A stretch of DNA of 64,000 bases from an uncultured Clostridia bacterium (GTDB taxonomy: Bacteria; Bacillota; Clostridia; TANB77; CAG-508), in contig CAKOUU010000008.1 of the NCBI GenBank assembly GCA_934120675.1, forward strand, positions 1,420-65,419. Direction: 5' to 3'. A model generated the notes under the pieces. It had not been told where the DNA came from. It ran no database searches and was given only the letters and a program-made list of their open reading frames with translations. Of this stretch, positions 1,948 to 63,931 are shown piece after piece. Each line of letters begins with the position of its first letter. The first letter of the stretch is position 1. The translations under genes were made by a program, and so were the position numbers.

Positions 1948-3168
1948 TTATTTTATATAATTTTTAAACATACCATAAGCCTTATCAAGTGCCTTAACCA
2001 ATTTATCTACATCCTCTTTTGTATTGTAGATGTAAAAACTTGCTCTACAAGTAGAATCAATACCTAAGAATCTCATAAGTGGTTGAGCACAATGATTTCC
2101 AGAGCGCACACATACACCTTCTGAATCTAAAATACTTGCAACATCATGTGGATGTACCCCTTTAATGTTGAATGAAATCACGCTTGAATGATTTTCTTCA
2201 TTTGGTGTTGTGTATAATGTTAGATAATCTAGTTTTGATAATTCTTGTCTTGCATATGATATTACTTCATGTTCAATTTCTTGTATTTTGTCATATCCTA
2301 AATTTTCAATATAATCAATAGCAGCACCTAAGCCAATTACGCCTTCAACATTTTGTGTACCAGCCTCAAATTTATTTGGAAGTGGTGCAAATGTTGTATC
2401 TTGTTCATAAACGTATTCTATCATATCTCCACCCATTAAAAATGGAGTCATTTTGTTTAGTATTTCTCTTTTTCCATATAATACGCCTATTCCAAGTGGG
2501 GCAAGCATTTTATGTCCTGAAAATACTAGAAAATCCGCATCTAAATCTTGAACATCAATTTTCATATGTGGTATGCTTTGTGATGCGTCAACTATTACTA
2601 CTGCACCTTTTTTATGCGCATATTTTATGATTTTTTTCACATTATTTATTGTTCCTAAAACATTTGAAACATGTGTAATTCCAACGATTTTTGTTTTGTC
2701 TGTAATTTTACTTTCTATTTCTTCGTCTGTAATTTCATAGTTTTCGTTAATGTACATGTATTTTAATTTGCTTCCTGTTTGCTTTGTCATTTTTTGCCAA
2801 GGAACCAAATTTGAATGATGTTCCATTATTGAAATTACTACCTCATCATCTTTTTTTAGGTTGTCCAAACCATATGAATATGCAATTAAGTTTAAACTTT
2901 CTGTTGCATTTTTTGAGAATATTATTTCTTCTCTGTGTTTTGCATTTATGAATTTTGCTATTTTTGTTCTTGTATTTTCGTATTGTTCAGTTGCTTCTAC
3001 ACTTAATGAATATGCCCCCCTGTGTGGGTTTGCGTTATATTTTTGGTAGAATTCTTCTACTGCTTTTATTACTTGAATTGGTTTTTGTGTTGTTGCTCCA
3101 CTGTCTAGATATGTTATGTTTTTATTTTCTAGTAGTGGAAAGTCTTTTTTTATTTGTTCTGTATTCAT
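1948..3168 (-). CDS. sufS: Cysteine desulfurase, SufS subfamily
   Basis: 406 aa with HHSNLVPWQ, the PLP-Lys context SGHKMLAPLGIGVLYG, and the active-site loop RSGNHCAQPL. Confidence 0.9.
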   Translation of the reverse strand: MNTEQIKKDFPLLENKNITYLDSGATTQKPIQVIKAVEEFYQKYNANPHRGAYSLSVEATEQYENTRTKIAKFINAKHREEIIFSKNATESLNLIAYSYGLDNLKKDDEVVISIMEHHSNLVPWQKMTKQTGSKLKYMYINENYEITDEEIESKITDKTKIVGITHVSNVLGTINNVKKIIKYAHKKGAVVIVDASQSIPHMKIDVQDLDADFLVFSGHKMLAPLGIGVLYGKREILNKMTPFLMGGDMIEYVYEQDTTFAPLPNKFEAGTQNVEGVIGLGAAIDYIENLGYDKIQEIEHEVISYARQELSKLDYLTLYTTPNEENHSSVISFNIKGVHPHDVASILDSEGVCVRSGNHCAQPLMRFLGIDSTCRASFYIYNTKEDVDKLVKALDKAYGMFKNYIK

Positions 3169-3405: not shown

Positions 3406-4248
3406 TTAATCTAACCTCTTATCAATTTCTTGTAAAATTTCTTCTCTCAATTCTTCATTTTCAATTTTCTCTAAAATTTGATTAAATCTAGCTCTAACCA
3501 TCAATTTCATAGCCTCTTTAAGTTCAAATCCTCTACTCATAATATAGAACAATTCTTTTTCTCCAATTTTTCCGGCTGAACTTGAATGGTTACCTTCAAC
3601 CTCTTCTTCAGAGCAAAGTAACATTGGTAAAGCAATTGATTTTGCTGTATCTGATAATAACATACAAGCCTCATTTTCATTTCCAGTAGCCTTTTTACAT
3701 CCTTTTTTAAAATCAATTGTTCCTTTAAAATGTTTTTTAGATGTATCCTTTAAAGCTCCTTGAACTTCTATATCAATATTAGATTTTTTACCTCTTAATT
3801 CACCTATATAATTTAAGTCAAAAACTTGATTTTCTTTTCCTAAATAAATTGTGTTTAGTTGATTATCACAATTATCCCCTTGTAAATTAGAATAATAATT
3901 TGTAATGCTGTGCTTTCCACCAAAATCAACAATTGTATAATTAATTTTTGCATTTTCTTCAAAATCATTTTCAATTGCTAAAAAGTTATTTGATTTTGTA
4001 TTCATTAAATTAACCAATACAATGTTTAATTCTGCATTTTTTTCAGCTCTTGCTTTTATTATCCCATTGTGATAATTTTCATTTTCTTGGTTTGAAATGT
4101 ATTTTATTATTATTGTTGATTTTGTGTTTTCATTTGCAATTATTTCTATATTGTCTATTAATACAGAATTTTCATTATCAAAATTAAAATCTATTTCCGC
4201 TTCTATTTTCTCTTCTTTTATATCAGAACATTCACATAATTTTGGCAT
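3406..4248 (-). CDS. sufD: SufD, core and C-terminal part (Fe-S assembly protein)
   Basis: 280 aa. The C-terminus SSSAGKIGEKELFYIMSRGFELKEAMKLMVRARF is typical of the SufB/SufD family. The N-terminal ~90 residues expected for SufD are encoded separately at 4295-4528. Confidence 0.8.
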   Translation of the reverse strand: MPKLCECSDIKEEKIEAEIDFNFDNENSVLIDNIEIIANENTKSTIIIKYISNQENENYHNGIIKARAEKNAELNIVLVNLMNTKSNNFLAIENDFEENAKINYTIVDFGGKHSITNYYSNLQGDNCDNQLNTIYLGKENQVFDLNYIGELRGKKSNIDIEVQGALKDTSKKHFKGTIDFKKGCKKATGNENEACMLLSDTAKSIALPMLLCSEEEVEGNHSSSAGKIGEKELFYIMSRGFELKEAMKLMVRARFNQILEKIENEELREEILQEIDKRLD

Positions 4249-4294
4249 AACCTCTTCATTTTGATTACTATTTATGTTTAATTTAATTTTTTGA

Positions 4295-4528
4295 TTAGCT
4301 CCGTGTTTTTACTTGATTTGTAAGTTCTTCACTTAAACCATAAACTAAATCTATATTTGTATTATCTGCATTTTGTTCTATATCTATTCTAGATGTGTCA
4401 CCAATTATTGTTACATTTTCAAATGATGGTATAACTTCTGGAACTTCAATATTTTCTAGTTTTATATTGTTTATTCTGAAGTTTTTTGCTGTTCTAACCG
4501 GTGTTTCATTTAATTTTAAACTTTCCAT
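4295..4528 (-). CDS. sufD: SufD N-terminal fragment (separate ORF, different frame from 3406-4248)
   Basis: 77 aa: MESLKLNETPVRTAKNFRINNIKLENIEVPE... resembles SufD N-termini. It ends at a TAA, 46 nt before the ATG of the downstream part. The two parts are in different frames. Confidence 0.55.
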   Translation of the reverse strand: MESLKLNETPVRTAKNFRINNIKLENIEVPEVIPSFENVTIIGDTSRIDIEQNADNTNIDLVYGLSEELTNQVKTRS

Positions 4529-4550
4529 TAATTTTTCCTTTCTGAATTTT

Positions 4551-4746
4551 TTCGGGATTTGGGGACGGGTCTTTAATCCCGAAATATTTTTCTTTCTTAT
4601 TCCTCAATTGTTATATATTAATATTTAAAGAAAAAGTCCCAAAGGAAGACCCAAAGTAGCATTTTTTCTGAAAATATTAATATATAACAATTGTAAAAAA
4701 AATTTATAAAAATTTTGGGATTAATGACCCGTCCCCAAATCCCGAA
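4551..4746. repeat. Composite nested palindrome: outer GGGGACGGGTC-loop hairpin pair, inner 22-bp perfect inverted repeat, 45-nt centre
   Basis: The outer unit 4551-4583 TTCGGGATTTGGGGACGGGTCTTTAATCCCGAA matches the reverse complement of 4715-4746. The inner repeat 4605-4626 CAATTGTTATATATTAATATTT matches the reverse complement of 4672-4693 at 22/22. It fills the sufB|sufD spacer. Confidence 0.85.
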
Positions 4747-4749
4747 TTT

Positions 4750-6150
4750 TTATCCTATTGCTCCTTCTAATTCTAAGTTAATAAGATTATTCATTTCAAC
4801 TGCATATTCTACTGGTAATTCCTTTGCTATTGGATGTGCAAAACCTCTTACTATCATAGCCTTTGCGTCTTCCTCTGATAGTCCTCTGCTCATTAAATAG
4901 AATATTGTTTTATCACTTATTTTCCCTATTTTAGCTTCGTGTGAAAATTCAACTTCATCTGTTCTTATGTCATTTGTTGGTATTGTGTCTGAAACTGATA
5001 TCTCGTCTAACATAAGTGATTCACATGATACTGATGATTTTGAATTTTTTGCATTTTCATTTATTCTTACCAAACTTCTATATGTGCATTTTCCACCGTT
5101 TTTTGATATTGATTTTGCATTTACAACACTTGATGTATTTGGTGCATTATGAATTACTTTAAATCCGTTGTCTAGGTTTTGTCCTCCACCCGCAAAAGAT
5201 ATTCCTGTAAATTCTGTTTTTGCACCTTCTCCATTTAGTATGCTCATTGGATATAGCATTGATATTTTTGACCCAAATGAACCTGATACCCAGTCCATTT
5301 TTGCATTTTTTCCTACTATTGCTTTTTTTGTATTTAAGTTAAGCATATTTTTTGACCAGTTTTCTATTGTTGAATATCTTAAATAAGCATTGTCTGCTAC
5401 ATATAGTTCAACACATCCTGCATGTAGATTTACTTTATTGTATTTTGGTGCTGAACATCCTTCTATAAAGTGTAAACTTGCTCCTTCTTCTACAATTATT
5501 AATGTGTGTTCAAATTGTCCAGCCTCTGGTGAATTTAGTCTAAAGTATGATTGCAATGGAACATCTACTTTTACTCCTTTTGGTACATATACAAACGAAC
5601 CGCCTGACCATACTGCTCCATGTAATGCAACAAATTTGTGGTCATATACTGGTACACATTTCATAAAGTGTGATTTTACTAATTCTGGATATTCTCTTAC
5701 TGCTGTTTCCATATCTGTATAAATCACACCTTGTTTTATTAATTCTTCTTTCATACTATGGTAAACAACTTCTGAATCATATTGTGCTCCAACACCTGCA
5801 AGTGATGTCTTTTCCGCTTCTGGTATTCCCAATTTGTCAAATGTATCTTTAATATCTTCTGGAACATCATCCCATGAACTATTTAATTTTGACTTTGGTC
5901 TTACATATGTTGCGATTTCGTCCATATTTAATTCTGATAAATCTGGTCCCCATGTTGGCATTTCTAAGTTGTTATATACCTCTAATGCTTTTAGTCTAAA
6001 CTCTCTCATCCAGTCTGGGTCGTTTTTTTGTTTTGATATTTCTTCTATTATTTCCGGTGTTAAACCTTTTTTTATTTTAAAGTCGTATTCATCTTTGTTT
6101 TTTATATCATAGATATTTCTATTTATTTCTTCTAAATTTGTTTTTGACAT
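4750..6150 (-). CDS. sufB: Fe-S cluster assembly protein SufB
   Basis: 466 aa with HTLIIVEEGASLHFIEGCSAP and GKISDKTIFYLMSRGLSEEDAKAMIVRGF. Confidence 0.92.
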   Translation of the reverse strand: MSKTNLEEINRNIYDIKNKDEYDFKIKKGLTPEIIEEISKQKNDPDWMREFRLKALEVYNNLEMPTWGPDLSELNMDEIATYVRPKSKLNSSWDDVPEDIKDTFDKLGIPEAEKTSLAGVGAQYDSEVVYHSMKEELIKQGVIYTDMETAVREYPELVKSHFMKCVPVYDHKFVALHGAVWSGGSFVYVPKGVKVDVPLQSYFRLNSPEAGQFEHTLIIVEEGASLHFIEGCSAPKYNKVNLHAGCVELYVADNAYLRYSTIENWSKNMLNLNTKKAIVGKNAKMDWVSGSFGSKISMLYPMSILNGEGAKTEFTGISFAGGGQNLDNGFKVIHNAPNTSSVVNAKSISKNGGKCTYRSLVRINENAKNSKSSVSCESLMLDEISVSDTIPTNDIRTDEVEFSHEAKIGKISDKTIFYLMSRGLSEEDAKAMIVRGFAHPIAKELPVEYAVEMNNLINLELEGAIG

Positions 6151-6233
6151 TTTATATAGTCCTTTCTAAAACTTGCATTTTATGTAAAATTGTGGTATAA
6201 TATTTTTATAAAAAACTTAAGGAGGTCACTTAT

Positions 6234-6452
6234 ATGAAAGAAAGTTATTTAACTCGGGGCATTTTTTATGGTATCGTAGGACTTATACTTACTATTTTTT
6301 CACTTTGTGTTTATTTTCTAGAGATACCTTTTATGTCCGAATCAATTAAGTTTCCTTGTACAGGATGCTTAGTTGCTATTGCAATATCTAATATTGTCAA
6401 GTGTATCATTTCTTTAGTATTTCACTATGACGCAACCTATTATCCATTCTAG
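6234..6452 (+). CDS. Small two-TM membrane protein, opposite strand, between sufC and sufB
   Basis: 72 aa. SD AAGGAGG lies 7 nt upstream. Promoter TTGCAT-17-TATAAT with a TG extension at about 6174-6202. A hairpin at 6460-6489 follows. Confidence 0.5.
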   Translation: MKESYLTRGIFYGIVGLILTIFSLCVYFLEIPFMSESIKFPCTGCLVAIAISNIVKCIISLVFHYDATYYPF

Positions 6453-6488
6453 GTGGCCGGGGTAATAATCATTTTTTTGATTATTACC

Positions 6489-7223
6489 CTATTTATATTG
6501 TGCATACCCATTTTCTTCAATTTCAGAAGCCAATTCTTGTCCTCCTGTTTTAACAATTTTTCCATTAACCAAAACATGAACATAATCAACTTTCAAGCTA
6601 TGCAAAATTTTTGTATTATGAGTAATAATTAAAACTGCATTATTCTCATTTTTAAACATCTCAATACCTTTTGAAACAGTCTTAATTGCATCAACATCAA
6701 GTCCTGAATCTGTTTCATCAAGAATTGCAAGTTTTGGATTTAAAACAAGCATTTGTAAAATCTCATTTTTCTTTTTCTCTCCACCTGAAAATCCAACATT
6801 TAAACTTCTTTCCATGTTTTTAGGATTCATATTTAATTCTTCCATATATTTTTTCAACTCATCTTTAAATTGAAATATTTTAACAGGTTGTCCTGTAATT
6901 TTATTTTTAGCATATTTTAAGAAATTTGTAACTGAAACTCCTGGTATTTCTTCTGGTAATTGGAATGACATAAATATTCCTTTTCTTGCAATTTCATCAG
7001 TTCTTGATTTTGTAATATCTTCACCATCAAATGTTATTGTTCCATTTGTTTTTGTGTATTCTGGGTTATTTAATATTGCATTTGCTGTTGTTGTTTTTCC
7101 TGAACCATTTGGTCCCATTATTACATGAATTTCTCCTCTTTTAATATTTAAATCTATTCCTTTTAATATTTCTTTTTCTCCTGCGTTTACATGTAAATCT
7201 TTTATTTCTAATAAATTACTCAT
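6489..7223 (-). CDS. sufC: Fe-S assembly ATPase SufC
   Basis: 244 aa with Walker A GPNGSGKTT, signature FSGGEKKKNEILQM and Walker B ILDETDSGLD. Confidence 0.92.
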   Translation of the reverse strand: MSNLLEIKDLHVNAGEKEILKGIDLNIKRGEIHVIMGPNGSGKTTTANAILNNPEYTKTNGTITFDGEDITKSRTDEIARKGIFMSFQLPEEIPGVSVTNFLKYAKNKITGQPVKIFQFKDELKKYMEELNMNPKNMERSLNVGFSGGEKKKNEILQMLVLNPKLAILDETDSGLDVDAIKTVSKGIEMFKNENNAVLIITHNTKILHSLKVDYVHVLVNGKIVKTGGQELASEIEENGYAQYK

Positions 7224-29020: not shown

Positions 29021-30822
<1,802 letters not shown>

Positions 30823-30824
30823 TT

Positions 30825-31183
<359 letters not shown>

Positions 31184-42310: not shown

Positions 42311-42388
42311 AAAAATGTCCTTTTGGGGACGGTTCTGTTTGGGACATCGGTTCCATTTGAGACATCGTCTTTAAAAAGGACATTTTTT
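42311..42388. repeat. Long hairpin between convergent rimI and thrS with three GGGAC/GAGAC-type units in its interior
   Basis: The stem AAAAATGTCCTTTT / AAAAGGACATTTTT encloses GGGGACGGTTCTGTTTGGGACATCGGTTCCATTTGAGACATCGTC. Confidence 0.75.
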
Positions 42389-50037: not shown

Positions 50038-50209
50038 AACAGGTTACAGTTCAGTAAGAAATTTTGTAAATTTGCTTTAAATGTTGATATACTAATATTT
50101 TGCAGTAAAAGACCTATAGGTAGACCCCGGCTATGTTTTTTACAAAAAATATTAATATATCAACATTTATAATAATTAATTCCTATACTTTACTGAACTG
50201 TTACATGTT
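50038..50209. repeat. 172-bp nested palindrome related to the core of the 4551-4746 element
   Basis: The outer AACAGGTTACAGTTCAGTAA matches the reverse complement of 50190-50209 at 18/20. The inner 50079-50101 matches the reverse complement of 50146-50168 at 22/23. The centre contains ACCTATAGGT and AGACCCC. Confidence 0.85.
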
Positions 50210-54549: not shown

Positions 54550-54566
54550 TTTTTCCTCCATAAAAT

Positions 54567-54652
54567 TTCGGGATTGGGGGACGGGTCTTTCATCCCGATT
54601 TTTTTATCATAAAAATTTTTCGGGATGAAAGACCCGTCCCCCAATCCCGAAA
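54567..54652. repeat. Inverted pair of GGGGACGGGTC-loop hairpins filling the dnaK|dnaJ spacer
   Basis: 54567-54598 TTCGGGATTGGGGGACGGGTCTTTCATCCCGA matches the reverse complement of 54621-54652 at 32/32. The spacer is a 20-nt AT palindrome. Confidence 0.9.
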
Positions 54653-54663
54653 TTTTTCAAATT

Positions 54664-62952: not shown

Positions 62953-63546
62953 ATGTCAGTAAATATGATAGTAAATAATCCAAAATTTGAAGTATCAGCA
63001 GTAAGACCTGCTCAATATCCAAAAAATAATTTACCAGAAATTGTTTTAGTTGGTAAATCCAATGTTGGAAAATCAAGTTTTATAAACACCATGATAAACA
63101 GAAAAAAGCTTGCTAGAACAAGCAGTGAACCTGGAAAAACAAGACAAATTAATTTTTATAATATTGACGAAAAATTTTATTTTGTCGATTTACCTGGATA
63201 TGGATACAGTAAAATGTCTAAAAAAGAACAAGAACAAGTTGGTAAATTTATTGAGCAATATCTATTTAATAGAGAACAAATTTCTTTGATTATCTTTTTA
63301 GTAGATATCCGTCATTCACCTACTGAAAATGATAAACTTATGTACGATTACGTTATTCGTTCCGGTTTACCTTGTATGATTTTGGCAAATAAAGCTGATA
63401 AAATTGCTGTTACTAAAGTTTCAGATGTAGCTAGCAAATTACAAAAAACTTTAAATCCAATTGGTGATATTCCTACTTTTCCATTTTCTTCTGAAAGAAG
63501 AATTTATATGGATGATGTATGGAATGAAATTGAAAAATATATTTAA
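62953..63546 (+). CDS. engB: Ribosome-biogenesis GTPase EngB/YsxC
   Basis: GKSNVGKSSFIN, DLPGYGY, NKADK. Confidence 0.92.
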   Translation: MSVNMIVNNPKFEVSAVRPAQYPKNNLPEIVLVGKSNVGKSSFINTMINRKKLARTSSEPGKTRQINFYNIDEKFYFVDLPGYGYSKMSKKEQEQVGKFIEQYLFNREQISLIIFLVDIRHSPTENDKLMYDYVIRSGLPCMILANKADKIAVTKVSDVASKLQKTLNPIGDIPTFPFSSERRIYMDDVWNEIEKYI

Positions 63547-63663
63547 AAAAACGGGATTAGGGGACGGGTCTTCAATCCCGAATTTTTTTGTATATTGATA
63601 CATTTAGAAATATTTAATAAAAAAATTCGGGATTGAAGACCCGTCCCCTAATCCCGTTTTTTT
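63545..63663. repeat. Perfect 45-bp inverted pair of GGGGACGGGTC-loop hairpins between convergent genes
   Basis: 63545-63589 AAAAAAACGGGATTAGGGGACGGGTCTTCAATCCCGAATTTTTTT matches the reverse complement of 63619-63663 at 45/45. Confidence 0.9.
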
Positions 63664-63931
63664 AGCAACAACATTTTCTTTTTTTATCTTTCTTTCTATT
63701 ACAAATTAGTAATATAATAGATAAAATTAAAAGTAATCCCAAAACAACTGCTAAAACTATTATCGCTCCAAAAGATGCTACTATTTCAGATGCTATTGCC
63801 ACTGCACCAACTAATAGTCCAACAACAAATGAAAAAGCAATTGCTAATATTACTGTTATGATTCCAAAACATTTATTGTTATTGCATTTATCTTCTTTTT
63901 TGTCATAGCAAAATACTTCTTGTGGCTCCAT
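63662..63931 (-). CDS. Hypothetical membrane protein with a Cys-rich N-terminus and KKRKCCC C-terminus
   Basis: MEPQEVFCYDKKEDKCNNNKC..., two TM helices, then NRKKDKKRKCCC. The start is taken after AGGAGG. Confidence 0.5.
   Translation of the reverse strand: MEPQEVFCYDKKEDKCNNNKCFGIITVILAIAFSFVVGLLVGAVAIASEIVASFGAIIVLAVVLGLLLILSIILLICNRKKDKKRKCCC

Follow-up and report, generated by a model that had tools for sequence, protein, structure and literature searches.

The window analysed here is a stretch of 64,000 nucleotides from an uncultured Clostridia bacterium (G000, contig C8, positions 1420-65419; positions below are window coordinates unless a contig, C, is named), whose 95%-complete assembly comprises 1.49 Mb in 38 contigs with 27.3% GC. 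It carries suf genes that are all on the minus strand: sufC (6489-7223), sufB (4750-6150; 466 aa, Pfam SUFBD_core 1.2e-83 and SufBD_N, 98% identity to the protein of the congener G016), sufD (3406-4528) and a sufS-like gene (1948-3168). sufD is read as two open reading frames of 77 aa (4295-4528) and 280 aa (3406-4248), with the Pfam SUFBD_core match (1.7e-56) on the second. Between the stop codon of sufB (4750-4752) and the start codon of sufD (4526-4528) lies a spacer of 221 nt (4529-4749).

A preliminary description of the sequence had seen a three-layer palindrome filling this spacer, which it gave as 220 nt; the palindrome is real and its coordinates are confirmed. The outer layer is, as had been proposed, a unit of a hairpin family that we call class 1 together with its inverted copy: a repeat search returned arms of 39 nt that are 92% complementary (4551-4589 and 4708-4746), each containing GGGGACGGGTC (4561-4571 on the plus strand, 4726-4736 on the minus strand). 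The left arm belongs to a plus-strand unit, antisense to the suf mRNA (4544-4591; nhmmer 49 bits at C8:5963-6010; predicted fold of -11.5 kcal/mol, z = -3), and the right arm to a minus-strand unit of the same sense as the suf mRNA (4706-4753; 48 bits at C8:6125-6172; -9.9 kcal/mol), which reads TAAAAATTC-GGGATT-TGGGGACGGGTCATT-AATCCC-AAAATTTTTA and whose stem lies 6 nt from the TAA stop of sufB. Inside these units are two AT-rich spacers (4590-4604 and 4694-4707), both of which align with a composite on contig C88 of another congener, G109. The middle and central layers form an inner hairpin element with arms at 4605-4635 and 4663-4693, delimited by the repeat search (31 nt, 94%) and by alignment of the family; the 22-nt perfect inverted repeat described earlier (4605-4626 and 4672-4693) is present and runs on to this greater length. 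The arms enclose a 27-nt apical loop (4636-4662, minus strand), placed by the conserved columns of the family alignment and by the similarity of the core to 50101-50146, whose mRNA-sense strand (..GCTACTTTGGGTCTTCCTTTGGGAC..) holds the family's conserved G-rich motif, TGGGGWC-N7-GGGWCTT. The segment next to sufD (4529-4543, minus strand) is a new leader with a Shine-Dalgarno sequence, AGAAAGGAAAAATTA, before the ATG, and is missing from the empty junctions of G016 and G109.

Folded as RNA, the whole spacer is predicted to form one hairpin of -92.2 kcal/mol, compared with -43.8 ± 4.4 for 200 dinucleotide shuffles (z = -11), so that the very long hairpin anticipated on the suf mRNA is borne out computationally. 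The final 24 nt, with the Shine-Dalgarno sequence and AUG of sufD, are unpaired in the MFE structure. A sigma-70 scan found no promoter in the spacer, and TTGACT/TATAAT candidates read by hand from the inner-family consensus were rejected for their spacing of 12-13 nt. An assembly artefact is unlikely, since the 70-kb contig extends past the palindrome on both sides and independent assemblies contain homologous composites.

We compared the junction within a set of 101 genomes sampled from the genus, G000 included; SufB and SufD were first located in 12 congeneric genomes, and five further genomes were compared by DNA. In nine of the 12, the sufB stop and the sufD start abut or overlap (TAATG or TAA-T-ATG); G016 (TAA-T-ATG), whose SufB is 98% identical to that of G000, is among the nine. 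The junction is empty in G109 too (TAG-T-ATG). In G096, the closest relative of G000 at this locus, with both flanks 95-96% identical, it holds only the class-1 hairpin pair with a 19-nt spacer. At least three other hairpin fillings are found in other species. G044 has a pair of a different hairpin, AACCAATGGGGACGTTG. In G047 a 70-nt middle is enclosed by two copies of a third hairpin, TGAGACAA..GGGACAG..TTGTCTCA, and G017 has the same hairpin type as G047, there supplying a new TGA stop four codons early. In G012 the filling measures 90 nt. In all filled alleles, a GAAAGGA-type ribosome-binding site separates the element from the ATG of sufD. These sequence comparisons indicate that the spacer is an insertion and that sufB and sufD abutted or overlapped in the ancestor. 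Since different hairpin classes occupy the same junction across species, it has been filled several times; at least four hairpin classes have independently refilled this one operon junction. The AACCAATGGGGACGTTG hairpin that fills the G044 junction belongs to a fourth family in G000, seen at 30790-30830 and 14 other sites, often as inverted pairs; it also fills a gap at C25:14859-14901.

The outer layer is a doublet of a REP-like family with the consensus TAAAAAWWY-GGGATT-kGGGGACGGGTCTyy-AATCCC-...TTTTTA. A search of the whole genome with nhmmer, using an HMM built from exact-core copies, found 75 units, arranged in 27 multi-unit groups and 18 singles. Their polarity is fixed: all 27 groups start with plus and finish with minus units, and minus never comes before plus. 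The groups are intergenic, bar one inside a reading frame proposed by a simple ORF caller, and lie at gene ends, with 1 of 45 between divergent starts; doublets or triplets are flanked by co-directional genes in 21 cases, by convergent genes in six and by divergent starts in one. Among 36 stop-adjacent units, 28 have a distance of 5-7 nt between stop and stem, most commonly 6, such that the TAA of the gene forms the base of the hairpin, and sufB agrees with this (TAA AAATTC GGGATT). Most doublets are tight, like the REPIN-like one at 54558-54661 with 2 nt between HMM matches, and the suf pair, with 114 nt between matches, is the second widest in G000. A further doublet lies between convergent genes at 63541-63666, with both stop codons 6 nt from the stems. 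Empty-site comparisons for the doublets at 54558 and 63541 gave no clean interruption; the gaps had been replaced. Of the exact core GGGGACGGGTCT there are 60 copies in G000, 64 in G044, 86 in G096 and 17 in G061; five other genomes have at most four copies each, the other 92 of the 101 have none, and a control pattern gave zero. The position and U run of a class-1 unit fit an intrinsic terminator; its stem has only 6-7 bp, its loop has 13-15 nt where such terminators have 3-8 nt, its folding energy is -10 to -11.5 kcal/mol, and it is not called by a terminator scanner.

Two side observations concern this family. The gene end orthologous to 63541-63666 has a common stem in G000, G016 (C3) and G109 (C7), TAA-N6-(C)GGGAT(T)/(A)ATCCC(G), with different loops (GGGGACGGGTCT, AAGGAGCCAATACTCC and GGATCTCC), which suggests either an old hairpin superfamily with loops homogenised within lineages or repeated re-colonisation. 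Furthermore, two wide class-1 doublets of G000 (C1:106567-106866 and C18:30598-30776) enclose one shared inner sequence that differs from the suf one (..AAATTTTCGCGCACGAACAAATTTACTGAAAA..), so class-1 doublets carry more than one kind of passenger.

The class-1 family is linked to a RAYT-type gene in two close relatives: inverted class-1 units bracket a 252-aa Y1_Tnp gene in G096 (C14) and G044 (C9). No cognate RAYT was found in the 95%-complete G000 assembly, and the orthologous G000 site holds a regulator-like gene and another ORF instead. The single Y1_Tnp gene found in G000 (C16:11586-12323, 246 aa) scores 31.9 bits with Pfam Y1_Tnp, above the 23-bit cut-off, and matches NCBIfam REP_Tyr_transpos with E = 1.3e-18 at 67.2 bits, below the 80-bit cut-off. 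Its protein contains the sequences HAH and YIHMNPVKAG. The gene is bracketed by inverted TGAGACAAGTGGGACAGTCC...TTGTCTCA hairpins (C16:11497-12451) of class 3, TGAGACAA..GGGACAG..TTGTCTCA, which is the hairpin that fills the suf junction of G017 and G047; class 3 has 10 copies in G000 and flanks orthologues of the C16 gene in six other genomes. The C16 protein also has a C-terminal extension of ~100 aa that looks like a helix-turn-helix, and G044 has a 100% identical copy of the gene. RAYT-like genes occur in 76 of the 101 genomes, with 1-6 divergent copies each, and each one that we examined has its own hairpin class. A (T)GGGGAC(G/A)G motif on the 5' side of the loop is common to all the hairpin classes. 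A class-2 hairpin, ATGTCyyTTTGGGGACGGTTCTGTTTGrGACATCGGTTCC, is found at 42316-42365 and about 16 other sites in G000, it too in plus-then-minus pairs, with the loop motif GGGGACGG in common.

REP and REPIN elements are associated with RAYT (TnpA_REP) Y1 transposases (Bertels & Rainey 2011, PMC3116915; Quentin et al. 2018, PMC6006769), and by structure and genomic distribution the outer layer is of this type. As in those systems, class-1 hairpins are short and extragenic, number in the tens, mostly form inverted doublets of fixed polarity that make a larger hairpin, lie at the 3' ends of genes and almost never between divergent starts, and flank a Y1 transposase gene in inverted orientation (in relatives); likewise, a genome has several hairpin classes and the arms change together. 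The differences are also clear. The host belongs to an uncultured gut Clostridia genus with 27% GC, the short stem (GGGATT/AATCCC) encloses a conserved loop of 13-15 nt and stands on a lower stem of A/T runs starting from the TAA of the gene, and G000 has class-1 repeats without a cognate gene. The 5' GTAG-type tetranucleotide of proteobacterial REPs is absent from the class-1 consensus (TAAAAAWWY-GGGATT); this tetranucleotide is specific to some RAYT groups. Unlike known RAYTs, the transposases of the genus are longer (about 250 aa with the C-terminal extension), reach 67 bits with REP_Tyr_transpos, below the cut-off of 80, and come in 1-6 divergent copies. Y1 subclasses with large C-terminal domains are reported not to be REP-associated (PMC6006769). 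Abundant flanking repeats are reported only for RAYT groups 2 and 3, the REPIN-rich groups being mainly proteobacterial, and the one group that reaches Clostridia has only low-abundance flanking repeats (PMC5581495). The present genus has a multi-class REP/RAYT-like system in uncultured human-gut Clostridia, a lineage where such repeats are little described.

The inner layer is a copy of a separate hairpin family. BLAST of 4598-4700 against the 100 congeners found full copies of ~90 nt in at least 11 of the 101 genomes: at least four in G016, two in G096, at least nine in G109, at least ten in G047 and five in G078, with others in G084, G031, G060, G044 and G100 and at C2:6534-6611 of G000. 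When 185,579 species representatives were scanned for an exact pattern, only 19 stretches were returned, every one from a gut 'Clostridium sp.' or an uncultured Clostridia MAG; the sources include Clostridium sp. CAG:389 and Clostridium sp. 28_17. A second full copy in the window lies between convergent genes (50079-50168, plus strand), inside a further inverted repeat of its own (GTTACAGTTCAGTAA ...). The resemblance of the suf inner repeat and centre to this element, first noted by eye, is one of true relatives: the local alignment scores 38 compared with 10.3 ± 1.6 for shuffles, far above an AT-rich background, and neither 2000 dinucleotide shuffles nor 5000 random 90-mers from the genome ever reached this score. 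For the core by itself the score is 14 against 6.4 ± 1.3 (a value reached by 4 of 5000 shuffles), and arm matches with at most four mismatches to AAATGTTGATATATTAATATTT number 35 compared with 13-21 in shuffles, which is not significant, so the kinship rests on the full-length alignment. The search for further copies that the preliminary description had called for thus found them both in G000 and in other species.

An alignment of 35 copies shows a conserved apical region (..AAAACATAgCTGGGGTCTACCATTGGGTCTTT..), a conserved ATATATTAATATTT stem and a proximal stem that co-varies (GTCAAA/TTTGAC, GAAAAA/TTTTTC, GAACAA/TTGTTC, GTAAAA/TTTTAC); the outer stems vary from copy to copy yet stay complementary, with arms of 11 to 76 nt. 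RNAalifold predicts 29 pairs, 21 of them with compensatory change. Counted over 1009 cells, 93.3% are paired, compared with 72% in shuffles and 37-47% in slid controls, and 211 cells carry two-sided changes against 11 with one-sided changes of the wobble type, values that none of 500 shuffles reached. Because G-U pairs are few among the departures, these sequence data argue that arm complementarity is maintained at the DNA level rather than by selection on an RNA fold. A family with a conserved loop and co-varying Watson-Crick stems also provides a clean natural data set on arm matching in hairpin repeats. The copies lie at gene 3' ends, with none between divergent starts, and in co-directional contexts the G-rich loop strand is in mRNA sense in 14 cases vs 2 (~12 vs 2 when orthologous loci are merged). 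This orientation bias could reflect the polarity of transcription or replication in a genome with a strong gene-strand bias, or it could be a sign of an RNA-level function.

The arms of the inner element hold only a 10-nt AT palindrome, which sets it apart from REPINs; no RAYT lies near its copies in G047, G109 or G078, and no transposase linked to the family was found. No gene-bearing full-length version came to light either, the half copies of G000 adjoining housekeeping genes rather than transposases, and the idea that the cores are miniatures of a DUF559 endonuclease cassette was dropped, PF04480 not being found in G000, G047, G109, G016 or G078. One empty-site comparison was informative: at C2 of G000, ~60 nt with ATATAT on both sides are present in G000, G044 and G096 and missing in G016 and G109. 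Similar attempts gave no clean junctions for the G016 composites, whose orthologous gaps in G000 hold unrelated hairpins, nor for 50079-50168, where one flank is no longer syntenic. Correia/NEMIS elements of Neisseria and other MITEs are palindromic non-coding insertions of ~100-150 nt between co-transcribed genes at AT-rich targets, and the suf composite resembles them in these respects. MITEs have conserved terminal inverted repeats and a variable interior; the inner family, in contrast, keeps its apex, with only the ATATATTAATATTT inner stem conserved and the outer arms varying, and no parent IS was found for it.

We consider it probable that the spacer is a composite of two non-coding mobile hairpin-repeat families of the REPIN/BIME-like kind, inserted between the sufB stop and sufD, and that any effects on suf are by-products; it looks like selfish inserted DNA rather than a purpose-built regulator of suf. 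The first layer would be a REPIN-like doublet of two inverted class-1 REP hairpins, presumably mobilised as single-stranded hairpin DNA by a RAYT-type Y1 (HUH) transposase. The second and third layers would together be one copy of the second, independently distributed family, with its conserved ~27-nt G-rich apical loop, conserved ATATATTAATATTT stem and variable outer stems. This inner element would have reached the AT-rich centre of the doublet either by landing there or by being copied en bloc with it from a composite donor, and its arms would be kept complementary at the DNA level, with no selection on RNA. Several observations count against this explanation: no class-1 RAYT was found in the G000 assembly, no transposase is linked to the inner family, proteobacterial REP hallmarks such as GTAG are lacking, the change between G096 and G000 is unclean, and the orientation of the inner element is biased 14 to 2.

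The proposal that one repeat family lies nested inside another, or that the element is modular, is supported by the differing copy numbers and species distributions of the two layers, by the doublet standing alone in G096 and by the end-to-end homologous composite at an unrelated locus of G109. Stepwise nesting fits the doublet-only allele of G096, the different species distributions, the lack of an inner part in most doublets and the ~60-nt insert between ATATAT sequences at C2 of G000. A possible but clearly less probable reading is that the palindrome arrived at the junction in a single copying event, as one BIME-type mosaic unit (REP, central motif, inverted REP), for example through gene conversion guided by the REP arms. 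The G109 composite at C88, which lies between a TAA stop and the ribosome-binding site of the next gene, has the same architecture, and the two align end to end at 81% over 185 nt, similar-length spacers included. In G016, where all inner copies are bracketed by inverted GGGATT..AATCCC hairpins, pairs of copies have common spacer sequence beyond the inverted repeat, and the suf junction is empty despite the near-identical SufB. Moreover, G096 and G000 differ by a replacement (a 19-nt spacer against 23 + 89 + 23 nt) and not by a clean insertion. A one-step origin fits poorly with the doublet-only state at the very same junction in G096, with the quite different distributions of the two families, with the tightness of most class-1 doublets, which have no inner part, and with the lack of class-1 flanks at most inner copies. 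Stepwise nesting and en-bloc copying are both forms of repeat-element dynamics. E. coli BIME-1/RIP consists of a REP, an L motif with an IHF site and an inverted REP (cited in PMC6006769), and the suf composite is similar to E. coli BIMEs in that a central motif, distinct and conserved, separates two inverted REPs, and in lying in gaps between cistrons and at the ends of genes; unlike in BIME-1, the central motif is itself a ~90-nt hairpin repeat with a separate distribution.

We raise more tentatively the idea that the inner element is a distinct type of non-autonomous hairpin, recognised by its apical loop and not by its termini, which would settle preferentially at the AT-rich apex of existing palindromes (such as REPIN centres or gaps between convergent terminators), be moved in trans by RAYT-like enzymes and have its arms regenerated by fold-back copying or intra-hairpin repair. 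Such regeneration would explain how arms can diverge between copies and yet remain perfectly Watson-Crick. The inner loop, TGGGGWC-N7-GGGWCTT, resembles the class-1 REP loop, TGGGGAC-GGGTCTT.

It is improbable that the hairpin has been selected to act in cis on the suf RNA and to set the SufB:SufD ratio, whether as an intercistronic stabiliser, as an attenuator or as an RNase III site. In favour of this reading, the very stable fold leaves the Shine-Dalgarno sequence and AUG of sufD free, the sense class-1 unit places a hairpin followed by a U run right after the stop codon, and the inner family is biased to the G-rich strand in mRNA sense. Nonetheless, the element is missing in most congeners and this one junction has at least five different fillings, there is no enrichment of wobble pairs (11 cells vs 211 two-sided changes), the same elements occur at unrelated loci, mostly between convergent genes, and sufD reads as frameshifted in G000. 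Rfam contained no matching family and gave only sub-threshold matches to generic microRNA-precursor hairpins. These comparative sequence data argue against a conserved regulatory role of the spacer. Reading the odd operon gap as repeat DNA advises against annotating a suf regulator there.

An equally doubtful reading, in which the inner palindrome is a DNA-binding platform (the operator of a dimeric regulator, or a nucleoid-protein site as in E. coli BIME-1) with the related palindrome AAATGTTGATATATTAATATATCAACATTT as its simplest form, draws on that perfect 30-bp core-less palindrome 76 nt upstream of a start codon (C1:47856 of G000), on single arms upstream of housekeeping genes and on two direct GGGWC motifs in the loop, but the genes beside arm copies have no common functional theme, for which reason the operator or regulon idea was rejected, the arms vary freely around a conserved loop, the reverse of an operator, the suf arm at up to four mismatches does no better than background (35 vs 13-21), and the spacer holds no promoter-like site. 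The AAATGTTGATATATTAATATATCAACATTT palindrome (C1:47852-47891) equals the 50079 element minus its core, between two copies of ATATTAATAT, and could be an unfilled target or a deletion product.

Under the preferred reading of the spacer as inserted repeat DNA, the consequences for suf are predicted by-products of the insertion: uncoupled translation of sufD and a likely RNase III or terminator site. The ancestral overlap of sufB and sufD implies translational coupling, which the insertion would remove, and translation of sufD would now rely on a Shine-Dalgarno sequence that is predicted to be free just 3' of the -92 kcal/mol mRNA hairpin. The sense class-1 unit, a hairpin that lies 6 nt past the stop and leads into a U run, may act as a partial terminator. 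The full hairpin would comprise long near-perfect duplexes of the kind cut by RNase III and is a likely substrate for it; Correia/NEMIS RNA hairpins are cut by RNase III, with altered expression of neighbouring genes. Compared with the intact 373-aa gene of G096, sufD of G000 is split by one extra A (AAGTAAAAACACGG in G000, AAGT-ACAATACGG in G096; 4250-4300); this may be a genuine frameshift, lying just downstream of the insertion, or a homopolymer error of the MAG. The insertion would break the sufB-sufD coupling and coincides with an apparently frameshifted sufD, and this may bear on decay of suf in this lineage.

The suf pathway seems to be variably present in the genus: in a first sample of 31 genomes (30 relatives and G000), 13 have a true SufB, the rest giving weak SufD-like matches or none. 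The gap between sufC and sufB is also unusual, measuring 338 nt in G000 (6151-6488) compared with 26 nt in G015, and it contains an antisense cassette. For the hydrophobic 72-aa ORF of this cassette (6234-6452, plus strand), no homologue was found in the suf loci of 12 relatives or elsewhere in G000. The cassette further includes a promoter-like TTGCAT-N17-TATAAT with a TG, a strong AAGGAGG site and a terminator-like hairpin (6459-6490).
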